Shown in pieces: positions 6,909 through 13,585 of a stretch of 28,929 nt of DNA. Below the pieces are notes generated by a model. That model searched no databases. It was not told the origin of the DNA and worked only from the letters and a program-made list of their open reading frames with translations. This stretch comes from Candidatus Iainarchaeum sp. (GTDB lineage Archaea; Iainarchaeota; Iainarchaeia; Iainarchaeales; DTGL01). How positions within the stretch are numbered: position 1 is the first letter of the stretch; each line of letters begins with the position of its first letter. Position numbers and translations under genes: made by a program. The stretch is taken from positions 1 through 28,929 of the forward strand of contig JAGHBI010000092.1 in assembly GCA_021161055.1 (NCBI GenBank), given 5' to 3'.

Positions 6909-7631
6909 ATGATTCGCATAACCAGAGTTCAGCCATTCCAAAGCGCCATAAGAGCAATAGCTAATTTTATCTCTGAGGGAAACTTCAGATTCAACGAAAA
7001 AGGTCTTTCCTTCAAAGCAGTTGATCCGAGCCAGATAGTGCTTGTAAGCTACGAGGCTGGCAGAGATTTCTTTGAGCGATTTGATGTGGAGCCGAGCCTT
7101 GTAGGCGTTGATATAGATGAGTTGAATAAGGTTGTGAGGCGTGCATCAGCAAGCGATGCTATTGAACTGGAGCTTGAGGACTCCTACCTTAAAGTGGCAA
7201 TAATCGGCAGCCTTGAAAGAATCTTCAGATTGCCTCTCATTGATGTGCTTGAAGAAGAGCCCGAAGTGCCTGAGCAGAGCTATGATGTAACGATTGAGAT
7301 TGGGGCAAGGCTCTTACAGGAGGCATTGAAAGATGCTTCGCTCTTTGAGAGCAGTGTTGTTTTTAGGGTTGAAAACTCAAAGCTTTTCATAGAAGCGAGG
7401 GGCTCGCAAGGGATGCTTCGCACGGAAGCGAAGCAGCAGGATCTTGTGAAGGTAAGGGCAAAGGCCGATGTTGTTGGCAAGTACTCGCTCAACTTCCTTG
7501 AGAACATCGTTAAGGAGGCCGAACCATCCGAGAGTATCATTCTTGAGCTGAAGAGCGAGGCTCCAATGAGAATAACATACAATATAGGCTCAGCGAAGCT
7601 TCAATTTCACCTGGCGCATATGATTCTATAG
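6909..7631 (+). CDS. pcn: Second, divergent PCNA paralogue (PCNA-2)
   Basis: KGLSFKAVDPSQIVLV, LPLID, LLQEALKDA, KYSLNFL and APMRITY align over the full length with PCNA-1 (about one third identical by manual alignment). C-terminus is LAHMIL. Confidence 0.93.
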   Translation: MIRITRVQPFQSAIRAIANFISEGNFRFNEKGLSFKAVDPSQIVLVSYEAGRDFFERFDVEPSLVGVDIDELNKVVRRASASDAIELELEDSYLKVAIIGSLERIFRLPLIDVLEEEPEVPEQSYDVTIEIGARLLQEALKDASLFESSVVFRVENSKLFIEARGSQGMLRTEAKQQDLVKVRAKADVVGKYSLNFLENIVKEAEPSESIILELKSEAPMRITYNIGSAKLQFHLAHMIL

Positions 7632-7682: not shown

Positions 7683-8678
7683 ATGATTGAATTCTCGCTC
7701 GAGGATTTGCAGTTTGCTGCCCGTTATCCTTTTTCCAATACGGCAAAGCGCATAGTGCAGCGATCAAATTTGGCTATTGATGATATCGATATCACAATTA
7801 AGGATATTGCAAAAGGTGCTTTGAAGGCTGCGCTCGCTAACGAAGCCTATCCTGTGTGCGAACACAGGGATAAGGAGACTTTAGCGAGGTATATACTCGC
7901 ATATCCCGTTGCAAGAGTGCTTGTTTCCTTTCTCGAGAACCCCAAATATTATTTCTACTTTGCCCGCGCAATTTACAGGGCAGCACTGGCTTCTCTTCAA
8001 AGGGCACATAATGGGGTTGAGGAAGCGAAAAAGCTGGCGAACGATTTCGGCATAAGTTTTGGTTTCAATGGGTACTTTGAACTCGACCTTATGGAATTCC
8101 TCAGGACTCCAAGCAAGGATGAACTTCTGAAGCTTGTGAACCAGAAGGTTCATTCCGGCACCGTTTTTCTCAGCCCGAACCGATTTTCCCGCTTCCTGGC
8201 AGAAAGGGCACAGCAAAGCGTACTTTCCACACTGCCTGTTAGTACGCAGGGCTTGCCTTCAGAGCTCAGGGAGCTAGCTTTTGAAACACTTGAGGAATCG
8301 CTTGAGAAGACCAAGGCAGAGATAAGCACAACAGCAAACCTAAGTGCACTGCCACCATGCATAGAAAAGATATATTCTGAGCTGCTTGCCGGCAATAATA
8401 TTCCGCACATGGCAAGGTTTGCCCTGGCAACATTTCTCAATGCGATAAACGTTCCTGAGGAGAAGATTATAGAAGCATTTTCCCATGCACCAAACTACAA
8501 CGAAAAGATAACCCGTTACCAAGTGTCAAGAATAGTGCATGGTAGAGCAGGCAAGCGCTACAGGCCATTATCCTGCGCAAAGATGCGCAGCTATGCATTA
8601 TGCAATGCGAACTGCAATGTAAAAAACCCGATGCAGTATTATAGAAAACAGCTTGCAACAAGCTCCAGAGGTGGATGA
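7683..8678 (+). CDS. priL: DNA primase large subunit PriL
   Basis: YPF, LVNQ.V..G.V.L, PPC, H.ARF.LATFL, APNYNEKITRYQV and Y.P.SC.KM....LC...C (four cysteines for a 4Fe-4S cluster). Confidence 0.95.
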   Translation: MIEFSLEDLQFAARYPFSNTAKRIVQRSNLAIDDIDITIKDIAKGALKAALANEAYPVCEHRDKETLARYILAYPVARVLVSFLENPKYYFYFARAIYRAALASLQRAHNGVEEAKKLANDFGISFGFNGYFELDLMEFLRTPSKDELLKLVNQKVHSGTVFLSPNRFSRFLAERAQQSVLSTLPVSTQGLPSELRELAFETLEESLEKTKAEISTTANLSALPPCIEKIYSELLAGNNIPHMARFALATFLNAINVPEEKIIEAFSHAPNYNEKITRYQVSRIVHGRAGKRYRPLSCAKMRSYALCNANCNVKNPMQYYRKQLATSSRGG

Positions 8679-9941
8679 ATGCAGGGGGATTTTCAAAAAG
8701 AAGAGGCCTTTCTGAGAGAAAAGTTTAGGGAATATTATTCAAAGCACAAGGTAACAAGCGTGCCTGAAATAGATAAGCGGGAGTTTGGAATAGGCAATTT
8801 TGGCAAGAAGATTGTTAGAAGGCACATGAGCTTTGGTGATTATGCCGAACTGAACACCTTTCTGAGAAGCGAAGCACCGCTTTTTATCTCATACTCTGCA
8901 GCTTACTATAGGGATGCTTCTGCTCGGCCCATGGAAAGGAAGGGCTTGCTCGGCGCTGACTTAGTTTATGAATTCGATGCTGGTGATATCCCCACAAAAT
9001 GCAAAGAGAAGCATGATTTCTGGATTTGCCCAAAATGCAATAGCACGGGCAAAGGCTCAGTGCCAAAATGTCCCAAATGTTTTGCCACAACCAAACAGTA
9101 TGAGTTTCCCTGCAAGCGTTGCATTGAAGAAACAAAGAAACAGGTGATAAAGTTGCTTAATATTCTGGAAAGCGAACTTGGATTAACGCAAGGCATAAGC
9201 ATAAATTTCTCGGGGAATGCAGGCTATCACGTTCATATAAGAAGCGACACCATAAGGCATTTATCGCAGGATGCAAGGATAGAGCTTGTGGATTACCTTA
9301 CACTTTCCGGTTTCGTGCCTGAACATAATGGCTTTGATCTTTCTACAAAAATGTTAAAGTGCCCTGAGTATGCAGAATTGAAAGGCGCTCAGGCGCGGGT
9401 GATGCAGCACATGATAAAGTTTATAATGAATGCAAACACCGATGAGCTTGCGCAGTATGGCTGCATATCTCTTCCAAGCAGGAGAAAGCGCGAGGGCTTG
9501 AAGCTCGCCTCCTACATCCATGAAAACAAAGAAAGTGTTGTGGCTCGCATAAAGAAAGGCACACTGTTTTACATCGGTTCACGCACAGTTGCTTCTGCAT
9601 TTTGGAGGGCAATTATTGAGCATGCTGTGCGTTTGGCTTCCATAAAGCTTGACAGGCAGACCTCAATCGATATACACAAGATTGTTCGCGTACCCGATTC
9701 GTTGCATGGCTCATCTGGCTTTATTGCAAAAACCGTGCCATTGGATGAACTTAAAGAGTTCGATCCATTTGAGCATGCACTCGCGTTCGACAGCGGGCAA
9801 ATAAAGGTTTTTATTAATAAGGCACCAGAATTTAAAATAGCTGACGATACTTTTGGACCGTTTGAAAATGAGCAGGCTGAGCTGCCAACGGCTGCAGCTC
9901 TATACCTTGTAGCAAAAGGTGTCGCAAAGCTTTGTGATTGA
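8679..9941 (+). CDS. priS: DNA primase small (catalytic) subunit PriS, divergent active-site motifs
   Basis: REFG, RH..F, YS.AYY..., GADLVYEFDA, FSGNAGYHVH and IDIHKIVRVPDSLHG motifs; directly follows priL and precedes GINS. Confidence 0.92.
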   Translation: MQGDFQKEEAFLREKFREYYSKHKVTSVPEIDKREFGIGNFGKKIVRRHMSFGDYAELNTFLRSEAPLFISYSAAYYRDASARPMERKGLLGADLVYEFDAGDIPTKCKEKHDFWICPKCNSTGKGSVPKCPKCFATTKQYEFPCKRCIEETKKQVIKLLNILESELGLTQGISINFSGNAGYHVHIRSDTIRHLSQDARIELVDYLTLSGFVPEHNGFDLSTKMLKCPEYAELKGAQARVMQHMIKFIMNANTDELAQYGCISLPSRRKREGLKLASYIHENKESVVARIKKGTLFYIGSRTVASAFWRAIIEHAVRLASIKLDRQTSIDIHKIVRVPDSLHGSSGFIAKTVPLDELKEFDPFEHALAFDSGQIKVFINKAPEFKIADDTFGPFENEQAELPTAAALYLVAKGVAKLCD

Positions 9942-9942
9942 T

Positions 9943-10494
9943 ATGAATTTTGAGGAGCTGCGCAAGCTTCACAGAATGGAGAAAAACTCCTCACAGCTCG
10001 CCAGCATAAACGAGGATTTCTTCATCGAGCTCAAAGCGTTCCTCGCCGAAAAAAAGGAGCAATATCTGGAACACTTAAAAAAAGGTTCACTTGCAAGTGA
10101 GGACTTTTCAAATATAGAACGCATGGCAAGAGAGCTTCTTGAGATAAGGGAAAGGAAGATACTGAAGAAGGCCTTCCACGCTGCGATGACGGCCGAAACA
10201 GCAACGCCTAGCCTTTGCAGTGAAGAAAAAAAGCTTTTCAACAATATCTATAAAGCAGTCAGCGAGTACAAAAAGGTGTTAGACCGTATGTTTGCATTAG
10301 AAACCAAAAAGCCAAAAAAGCCCAGCGAGGAAAAGGATTTAAATACAGTTCGCATGCAGATTATTGAGGACGTACCAGCCTTTGTTGGCGCAGATATGAA
10401 GGAGTACGGCCCTTTCAGAAAGGGCCAGCTCATTGAGCTTCCAGCTGAAACAGCTGAAATCCTGCTCGCTAGAAAGCTTGCTGTTAGGCAATAA
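9943..10494 (+). CDS. GINS complex protein (Gins51/Gins15-type: helical A domain then C-terminal B domain)
   Basis: L..L.R.EK....L..I.EDFF, R.RKI..., EEK.LF and C-terminal VPAFVG.DMKEYGPF.KG....LP...AEIL; conserved position after priS. Confidence 0.9.
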   Translation: MNFEELRKLHRMEKNSSQLASINEDFFIELKAFLAEKKEQYLEHLKKGSLASEDFSNIERMARELLEIRERKILKKAFHAAMTAETATPSLCSEEKKLFNNIYKAVSEYKKVLDRMFALETKKPKKPSEEKDLNTVRMQIIEDVPAFVGADMKEYGPFRKGQLIELPAETAEILLARKLAVRQ

Positions 10495-11537: not shown

Positions 11538-12323
11538 ATGCATACTACAGTTGAATTTGTATGGAAAAAGAAAAAACTCAATAACCCTGTGTTATTTACC
11601 GGTCTGCCTGGTATAGGGCTTGTTGGTAAGATTGCAGTCGATTATATGCTCAAGCAGTTTAAAGCCAAGAAAATCGCCAATATCTATTCCGACTCATTCC
11701 CGCCAAGCGTTTATATAACCTCTGGAATTCTGGACCTTATAAGGGACGAATTATTCCTTTACAGGTTCAAAAACCGCGACTTTTTATTCTTAGCAGGGCC
11801 TGTGCAGCCAGCCTTAGATGTAAGGTTTTCGAGCCTTCAGGACCACTATGAGTTTGCCACAACGATTGTGAAAACGGTTAAGGCACTTGGCGTTAAGGAA
11901 ATATATACGTTAGCCGGTATAAACATTGGCGAGGCTCGTCTGCACAGAGAACCTCACATAGTTGCTGCAGCAACAGATAAGAAAATACTTGAAGAGCTCA
12001 GGGCGTTAGGTGCAAAAACGAATATGAAAAGTGGCTTGATCTCTGGTGCTGCAGGCCTGATCCTTGGTGTTGGCGCCAAGCGCGGTATTAAGGGCGCATG
12101 CCTGATGGGCGAAACAAGCGATAAGCTTATCTATGGCGACCACGGCGCTGCAAAGAAGATACTCGAGCTTCTGATAAAGCGCTATGGTTTCGAGCTCGAT
12201 ATGAGCGCTATTGCAAAGGAGGCGCGCAACATAAACAGAGCATTCAAACAGATAATCAATGAGCTTGCAGCGAGGAGTGCAGAGATAGCTGTGCCTGAGG
12301 AAAGCCCGAGCTATGTGCGTTAG
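11538..12323 (+). CDS. Proteasome assembly chaperone PAC2 family protein
   Basis: GLPGIGLVGKIAVDY, GLISGAAGLILG, GACLMGET and DH.AAKKIL; usual position after aIF2-alpha. Confidence 0.9.
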   Translation: MHTTVEFVWKKKKLNNPVLFTGLPGIGLVGKIAVDYMLKQFKAKKIANIYSDSFPPSVYITSGILDLIRDELFLYRFKNRDFLFLAGPVQPALDVRFSSLQDHYEFATTIVKTVKALGVKEIYTLAGINIGEARLHREPHIVAAATDKKILEELRALGAKTNMKSGLISGAAGLILGVGAKRGIKGACLMGETSDKLIYGDHGAAKKILELLIKRYGFELDMSAIAKEARNINRAFKQIINELAARSAEIAVPEESPSYVR

Positions 12324-13585
12324 AATTCATTCAATGTTTTCTGTCCTCTGAACGAGCTTCTGCACTCAAGCACATCGCTGAGCTCAATCTTTTTTCTTTC
12401 AAGCTCCTCCTCAGAATCGCAGATTATGGGTTCGCCGTATTTGCCTCCGCCGCCACCGATGTAAAGAACGCGTTTTTCTCTGAACGATTCTATCTTGTTT
12501 GCAACCTGTTCATTTATTTCTGCAATATCAATGATTGGCACATCTACGAGAACCTTTATTTCAGAACCGAAGTAGCTGACAAGCTCATGCCACAGGTTTT
12601 GGACAGCCAGCGCATTTATATTCTCAACATTCAACGCGAGCTTTATGATTTCTGCAAGCGGTATTATGTGAAGATATTCTGGCCTGAATGCAGGATGTAC
12701 CTCCTCACTAAAGCTTGCAAGCTCCAGTATTCTGTCACGAACCCCTTTTTTAATAGTGCCTCCGCAGCGCGGACAGCGCCACCTCAGCTTAACAGCATTC
12801 TCAAGGGTGTACTTTGAATAGCATCTGTTGCATGCTGTGCAATGGTATTTGCCTTCCCTTGGGTCCAAACCAACATTGAGCCGTATTCGTTCCCTTTCTT
12901 TTAAGAGAGCCTTTTTGAGCTCACCGAAGGAAGGCTTTTTCATTTCGATCCTTGTGAACTCTCTTCCCATGCGATAAGGCCAGGGCGAATGGGCATCGCT
13001 GCATGTTAAAAATGCCCGTTTGTGATTCTCTTCAATAAGGTCAGCGAAGTATGAATCCGCACTCAGCCCAAGCTCAATAAAGCTTATATCTTCAGCAAAA
13101 TCCCTGTAGCAGTGCTTTAATGAATCGAAATGCGAGAATACCGAATAATAAGGGGTGAACGCATGTGCAGGTCCTAGTATGCCGCCGCATTCTATAATAA
13201 GCTCCGCAATCTGATAGGCATGGAGAGCTAGCGTGGGTCTGCCAAATCCATTTCCGTCAAGCCTACCAAAGCGCATAACCCTGCTTCTCAGCTCCTCAAC
13301 GCTTGCAAAGTCCGGCATAAAAAATATATGGTGAACATTGTCAGCATCATTTATTTCGCCCGCTAACACAAAATAGGTTCCGGCTTCTTCCTCCTTAAAA
13401 CAGCCGTTCTCTTCAATCAGATGCTTTTTCAGATGTTCCAACCATTCCTTATTCAATATATCGCCTGCTGCCACAAGTTGCAAGCCTTTCAACTGGGCCT
13501 GTTTGCTTATGGTTGGAATGGTCATATTGCTGCTTGTTCCGCCTGAATAAAGCCCATGTATGTGCAGATCGCAGTCATAAAGCAA
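12320..13585 (-). CDS. Endonuclease Q (PHP-domain, TIGR00375-like) deaminated-base DNA repair endonuclease
   Basis: DLHIH, VHH, GPAHAFTP, ELGLSAD, SDAHSP..RMGREF, GLDPREGKYH.TAC.RC...CP.CGG.IKKGVRDR and GGGGKYG match Thermococcales EndoQ. C-terminal PIP-like QKTLNEF. TTG start. Confidence 0.9.
   Translation of the reverse strand: MLYDCDLHIHGLYSGGTSSNMTIPTISKQAQLKGLQLVAAGDILNKEWLEHLKKHLIEENGCFKEEEAGTYFVLAGEINDADNVHHIFFMPDFASVEELRSRVMRFGRLDGNGFGRPTLALHAYQIAELIIECGGILGPAHAFTPYYSVFSHFDSLKHCYRDFAEDISFIELGLSADSYFADLIEENHKRAFLTCSDAHSPWPYRMGREFTRIEMKKPSFGELKKALLKERERIRLNVGLDPREGKYHCTACNRCYSKYTLENAVKLRWRCPRCGGTIKKGVRDRILELASFSEEVHPAFRPEYLHIIPLAEIIKLALNVENINALAVQNLWHELVSYFGSEIKVLVDVPIIDIAEINEQVANKIESFREKRVLYIGGGGGKYGEPIICDSEEELERKKIELSDVLECRSSFRGQKTLNEF

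Follow-up and report, generated by a model that had tools for sequence, protein, structure and literature searches.

The metal ligands of archaeo-eukaryotic primases (AEPs) are treated as fixed, and reviews give the first of them as an aspartate only. The consensus for motif I is written hhhDhD/E, with Asp at the first acidic position and a choice between Asp and Glu at the second position only (PMC4538821; PMC10250227; bioRxiv 10.1101/2025.10.19.683342); thus, a primase that reads ExD falls outside the textbook motif. The stretch of Candidatus Iainarchaeum sp. DNA analyzed here (28,929 nucleotides, hereafter the window) encodes a protein of this kind. In its PriS, the small catalytic subunit of archaeal primase, motif I has a glutamate in place of the first metal-binding aspartate, and motif II has an alanine in place of the usual basic residue. 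Does this gene encode a working replicative primase with an altered metal site, or a protein that has given up some or all of its catalytic role? We favor the first answer, at a probability of roughly 0.78: the protein is probably the single active catalytic subunit of the replicative primase, acting with PriL, and its metal site would be Glu98-Asp100-Asp325 instead of Asp-Asp-Asp.

An orthologous PriS in a replication gene cluster

The PriS open reading frame (ORF) matches the Pfam model PF01896 (DNA_primase_S) at 49.2 bits (cut-off, 26.8; E 1e-12), and its best sequence match among solved structures is PriS of Saccharolobus solfataricus (Sso; 1zt2_A, E 3e-32). With 60 homologues as input, AF2 gave a model with a pLDDT of 96.2. 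The top Foldseek matches of this model were 5of3_A, 1zt2, 9f28, 1v33, and 1g71, from Sso and Pyrococcus, followed by human and yeast PRIM1; the Sso protein was the best fold match (E 6e-23). Model and Foldseek together identify the PriS fold. The gene lies in a cluster with the order PCNA, PriL, PriS, Gins51, S27e, aIF2-alpha, and PAC2 (Table 1). PriS and PriL are a textbook pair, and a PriL partner with Fe-S cysteines is encoded directly upstream: its alignment to Sso PriL (5of3_B) spans the cysteine stretches PPC, SCAKM, and LC..C. Because the Pfam match, the fold, and the synteny all point the same way, the orthology of this PriS is not in doubt, and an earlier note on this DNA was right to describe the gene as intact and embedded in a priL-priS-GINS cluster.

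Table 1. Features of the PriS locus, with positions in the window
Feature	Position	Strand	Remarks
PCNA	6909..7631	+	PF00705 and PF02747; upstream in the replication cluster
PriL, large primase subunit	7683..8678	+	PF04104, E 3.7e-23; stop codon directly followed by the PriS start codon
PriS, catalytic small subunit of archaeal primase	8679..9941	+	420 aa, intact ORF
Motif I strand, D94-L-V-Y-E98-F99-D100	8958..8978	+	E98 in place of the first metal-binding Asp
Cys-rich zinc-ribbon insert between motifs I and II	9000..9122	+	C108, C117, C120, C131, C134, C145, C148
Motif II, S178-G-N180-A181-G-Y-H184	9210..9230	+	Ala where Arg/Lys is usual
Motif III region, L324-D325 (third metal ligand), R326, D331, K334, R337, H343	9651..9707	+	
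Gins51	9919..10494	+	PF22090 and PF05916; downstream in the cluster

Two further features of the cluster were recorded. The listed GTG start of Gins51 (position 9919) gives a 23-nucleotide overlap with the end of PriS, and an alternative ATG is found at position 9943, two bases past the PriS stop codon; the two genes are tightly coupled under either start. Directly after PAC2, a 421-amino-acid ORF on the reverse strand (12320-13585) contains H-x-H in its N-terminal part as well as a CxxC...CxxC pair, and it had no Pfam match at E 0.01.

Active-site motifs of the window PriS

Residues were compared across 272 PriS sequences, of which 159 are of the ExD type and 113 of the DxD type. In the window, the motif I codons are GAA for E98 (8970-8972), TTC for F99, and GAT for D100 (8976-8978). 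Aligned with Sso PriS, E98 takes the position of catalytic D101 and D100 that of D103, and the model places residues 95 to 100 in a beta strand. Two acidic residues at positions i and i+2 are therefore present on the motif I strand, the first of them being Glu and not the Asp of the published form. Both are invariant among the ExD sequences: Glu occupies position 98 in 159 of 159, and D100 is found in all 272 sequences. The codons, the alignment, and the homologues thus agree with the E98-F-D100 reading of motif I in the earlier note.

Motif II differs in a second canonical position. A181 (codon GCA, 9219-9221) aligns with Sso R176, and H184 aligns with Sso H179. The AEP definition of this motif, sxH, is represented by G182-Y183-H184, and S178, G179, G182, and H184 are present in 272 of 272 sequences. 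The basic residue of S-G-x-[RK]-G, which is typical of PriS and lies outside the AEP definition, is absent from the window, where the two positions are N180-A181. Lysine or arginine occupies position 181 in 112 of the 113 DxD-type relatives (R in 101, K in 11; Ala in none), in keeping with the earlier view that the window motif lacks its canonical basic residue. The 159 ExD sequences are more varied at this position, with A in 83, K in 63, and R in 11. Taking the neighboring position into account, 74 of them have K/R at 181, 32 have K/R at 180, and 53, including the family of the window, have neither.

Around motif III, the window PriS is less unusual than the earlier note had held. Although the string that it read there is accurate, the residues that it flagged vary normally in canonical PriS: position 334 may be H, K, or R, and position 340 varies freely. 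The Asp to which it pointed, D331, corresponds to Sso D241; the third metal ligand of Sso PriS, D235, aligns with D325 (in L-D-R-Q), which is invariant in 272 of 272 sequences. L324-D325 supplies the hD/E form of motif III, H343 is found in all 272 sequences, and R337 is found in 270.

The Cys-rich insert between motifs I and II aligns with the zinc-binding segment of Sso PriS; in the homologue alignment, C145 and C148 are invariant and C108 is nearly so. One PriS from the order of the window (locus L019 in genome G010, family code f7) has two cysteines only where the window has CxxC...CxxC, and it has seemingly lost the zinc insert.

Distribution of the ExD motif

Among the closest 120 database clusters and the query (40 to 98% identity), E98 and D100 are present in 121 of 121, whereas position 181 varies (75 have Ala, 42 Lys, and 2 Arg). 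When 151 genomes of the phylum (Iainarchaeota/Diapherotrites) were scanned with Pfam models, PriS was found in 147, and motif I was read in representatives of every family code of the phylum. Motif I is E-[F/Y]-D in all 24 sampled families of the order to which the window belongs. In other Iainarchaeota orders, three families combine E-F-D with the motif II arginine (S-G-N-R-G); two families keep DxD as D-L-D or D-I-D. Both glutamate codons are in use among the relatives (GAG in 19, GAA in 16), which indicates that selection acts on the amino acid.

Outside the phylum, a search with the DxD-type Iainarchaeota PriS, whose matches include Micrarchaeota, Marsarchaeota, and Asgard proteins, gave DxD in 111 of 119 sequences, with R/K at position 181 in 118 of 119 and Ala in none. 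A locus search in Bathyarchaeia and Asgard returned DxD in 78 of 78, a count biased by a search pattern that itself contains D-x-D. The earlier note had asked whether ExD and the loss of the arginine are clade-wide, and the answer differs between the two. ExD spans the whole order and most of the phylum, and it recurs in a second group (see below); among these sequences, motif II arginine loss is limited to the order of the window, where the residue is Ala or Lys. The note had also proposed that its suspicion of an impaired enzyme would fall if ExD and SGNAG proved common in active orthologues. ExD is indeed common among orthologues, which are predicted to be active from their sequence conservation.

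Recurrent exchange of Glu and Asp in motif I

One ExD outlier in the out-of-phylum set, P0223, groups with DxD proteins on the tree. A search from it recovered about 30 further clusters, all of which have E-F-D and retain both the arginine of motif II and the V-T-x-D context of canonical PriS. One ExD PriS of this second group is encoded in a 0.7-Mb genome within the cluster PriL-PriS-Gins51-L44e-S27e-aIF2alpha-Nop10-PAC2, and its place beside PriL and Gins51 indicates that it is a chromosomal primase there too. In this second group of small-genome archaea (31 genomes), motif I is EFD in 12, DLD in 11, and DFD in 5. In an IQ-TREE phylogeny, one EFD protein is sister, with a support of 100, to four DLD proteins, to one of which it is 67% identical. 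The best tree has four E/D state changes, of which at least two are forced by well-supported branches, and some of the switches separate fairly close relatives. The tree thus implies that EFD and DLD have been exchanged more than once; the direction could be either way.

The residue between the two acids goes with the first of them. Of the 159 ExD sequences, 158 have F at position 99 and one has Y; of the 113 DxD sequences, 110 have L or I there and three have F. Independent contrasts for this E98-F99 coupling number two that are well supported (four on the best tree) and run in the same direction throughout, which is too few for significance. Across the 272 sequences, DFD forms occur and Glu with L or I in the middle is absent, a pattern that fits Phe at position 99 being permissive for Glu at position 98, as may be the case.

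Possible chemistry of the altered metal site

We infer that Glu98 binds metal and that the enzyme is active, the latter from sequence conservation alone. On this reading, E-F-D would be a functional alternative to D-[L/I]-D that selection has fixed in almost all of the phylum. The aromatic residue beside the glutamate may reposition the strand and so keep the metal within reach of the longer side chain. The motif II arginine normally contacts the triphosphate of the NTP. In the order of the window this residue would have been given up, to Ala or Lys, and Arg326, Lys334, and Arg188, which are fixed in the order, could have taken over the contact and compensated for the lost charge.

The comparison offers partial indications of such a handover. 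Arg326, which adjoins Asp325, is present in 83 of 83 ExD sequences with Ala181 and in 62 of 63 with Lys181 and is absent from 9 of 11 with Arg181, a reciprocity that reflects one evolutionary event. The pattern is consistent with the triphosphate-contacting positive charge having moved to a new place in the site. When the 159 ExD sequences were scanned for a gain of a basic residue specific to those with none at 180 or 181, no clear candidate emerged, and no compensating residue was replicated across independent events.

The same residues bear on whether the substitutions changed what the enzyme does. An active PriS whose chemistry is materially altered by its Glu ligand and by the lack of the arginine, through use of Mn2+ over Mg2+ or through NTP/dNTP affinity or choice, in line with the changed metal or NTP/dNTP preference suggested in the earlier note, would represent an adaptive retuning and not a near-neutral equivalence. 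We regard this as a possibility of perhaps secondary weight, and well short of probable. In its favor, the change from D to E in Iainarchaeota is accompanied by fixed residues near the site (Y97, F99, R188, R326, Q327, T328, and S329), and position 334 is K/R in 100% of ExD sequences but in 39% of DxD sequences; with the exception of F99, these associations come from one lineage and are hence unreplicated. The basic residue of motif II, moreover, is lost in only 1 of the 113 DxD relatives. In human PrimPol, the Glu of the DxE motif is reportedly critical for Mn2+-dependent activities (so the title of a 2019 study by Calvo et al. has it), although that Glu occupies a different position from the one in ExD. 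Against a retuned chemistry stands the ease with which the two states appear to interchange: relatives with EFD and DLD can be 67% identical, and the second group carries E-F-D while keeping both the VT.D context and the arginine. Nor does any sequence feature predict a preference for metal or sugar.

A broader form of the idea is more doubtful still. E-F-D and D-L-D might be evolutionarily switchable settings of the metal site that differ in cofactor or nucleotide behavior, after which the order of the window rewired triphosphate binding by losing the arginine and fixing Arg326. If true, this would help to make the start of replication in Iainarchaeota biochemically distinct from that in other archaea.

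Other primases encoded in the genome

The earlier note raised the options that the enzyme has low activity or a partly structural role, with priming supplied in another way. The assembly (826 kb in 111 contigs, 85% complete) contains a single match to PF01896, the PriS itself; at this completeness, a second primase could be missing from it. The search for a second PriS or a DnaG that the note had recommended also recovered one ordinary DnaG, a Toprim protein of 379 amino acids on contig C60, and, in addition, a Prim-Pol/AAA protein of 872 amino acids (L049:3452-6067, reverse strand). The latter lies on a 7.6-kb contig, C4, together with a tyrosine integrase with a zinc ribbon (L049:191-1381) and five small ORFs that have no Pfam match; this contig is probably an integrated plasmid or virus.

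A PriS that is catalytically weak or mainly structural, with DnaG or the Prim-Pol making the primers, could draw on these two genes and on the change of two canonical active-site residues, yet we consider it very unlikely. The other scored active-site residues are invariant in 272 sequences, which a noncatalytic protein would not keep, and the glutamate is itself invariant among the 159 ExD sequences, with both of its codons used. The Prim-Pol sits beside an integrase and occurs in 3 of 101 genomes of the order; so sporadic a protein cannot be the primase of the lineage. DnaG, for its part, is common to archaea whatever the type of their PriS, and its presence is therefore uninformative. The earlier note also raised the objection of sequencing errors. 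Such errors, or faults in the assembly of this metagenome-derived genome, might seem plausible given that D to E takes a single third-position change (GAY to GAR) and that the assembly is fragmented into 111 contigs, but the homologue survey excludes them: identical motifs are found in a 98% identical protein from a different source and in over 150 relatives.

Relation to known primases

With these alternatives weighed, the E-F-D PriS is most likely a working enzyme variant rather than a broken gene, as judged from the conservation of its active site. It refines an enzyme family and is not a new system. Like it, Sso PriS (1ZT2, 5OF3), its closest structural relative, has a zinc-binding insert and a PriL partner that carries Fe-S cysteines; the S-G-x-x-G-[YF]-H motif, the R-x-P-x-S-L-H-G segment, and the third Asp (D235 in Sso, D325 here) are also common to both. 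The two differ in motifs I and II, where Sso has D101-I-D103 and R176 and the window has E98-F-D100 and A181, and in length: the window PriS exceeds that of Sso by 90 amino acids, and its model shows an additional helical region around residues 236 to 320. Pyrococcus PriS (1G71, 1V33, 9F28) resembles it in the fold, the catalytic motifs, and a helical domain of similar size. Unlike the window PriS, it has DxD in motif I and always a basic residue in motif II. The Pyrococcus motif II, S-G-R-G-Y-H, is one residue shorter, and its basic residue follows directly on S-G, as it does in the S-G-[KR]-A-G members of the order of the window.

A further comparison is provided by the DxD-type PriS proteins of Micrarchaeota, Asgard, Bathyarchaeia, and the two DxD-keeping Iainarchaeota families, which are orthologous, lie in the same gene cluster, and are 34 to 42% identical to the window PriS. 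These have D-[L/I]-D and the motif II arginine, and the second Asp of their motif III region is preceded by V-T, compared with T-S in the window PriS.

A glutamate among the metal ligands of an AEP is not without parallel. The primase-polymerase ORF904 of pRN1 has one, in a DxE motif. So does human PrimPol, whose DxE motif places Glu among the three metal ligands and offers a precedent for Glu in this role (PMC12294863). In both of these proteins, however, the Glu is at the second acidic position, whereas in the window PriS it is at the first, and both are monomeric primase-polymerases of other AEP families and not PriS orthologues. A full-text literature search found no earlier description of ExD in archaeo-eukaryotic primases, and the literature consulted on Iainarchaeota and primase contained no description of the motif.

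The distribution described above thus adds natural replicative primases with Glu at the first position, across most of one phylum and part of a second group. If DxD were demanded in annotation or in calls of activity, such ExD primases would be wrongly flagged as dead. The close EFD/DLD pairs amount to a natural experiment on the tolerance of the metal site for a longer ligand, on the role of the aromatic neighbor, and on the dispensability of the motif II arginine.

Atypical PriS genes

Several PriS genes depart from the common arrangement. The DxD-type PriS of one genome of the phylum (L003 in G004, family code f25) groups with Micrarchaeota-like proteins, apart from its own phylum, on both trees, a placement that may reflect either gene transfer or a deep branch. 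In two other genomes, PriS lies inside frames of 766 amino acids (L150:286-2586, G130) and 605 amino acids (L147:885-2702, G134), the latter overlapping the end of the PriL ORF. The long N-terminal extensions of these two frames have no Pfam match, and they could be real or merely open upstream frames. Finally, an extra short PriS-like gene, with frames of about 266 to 375 amino acids and a Pyrococcus-style F-S-G-R-G-F-H motif, is present at L042 and L043 (G046 and G118) and, in the second group, at L189 and L190; in G046 and G118, it shares a contig with the main PriS, at a distance of about 10 kb.
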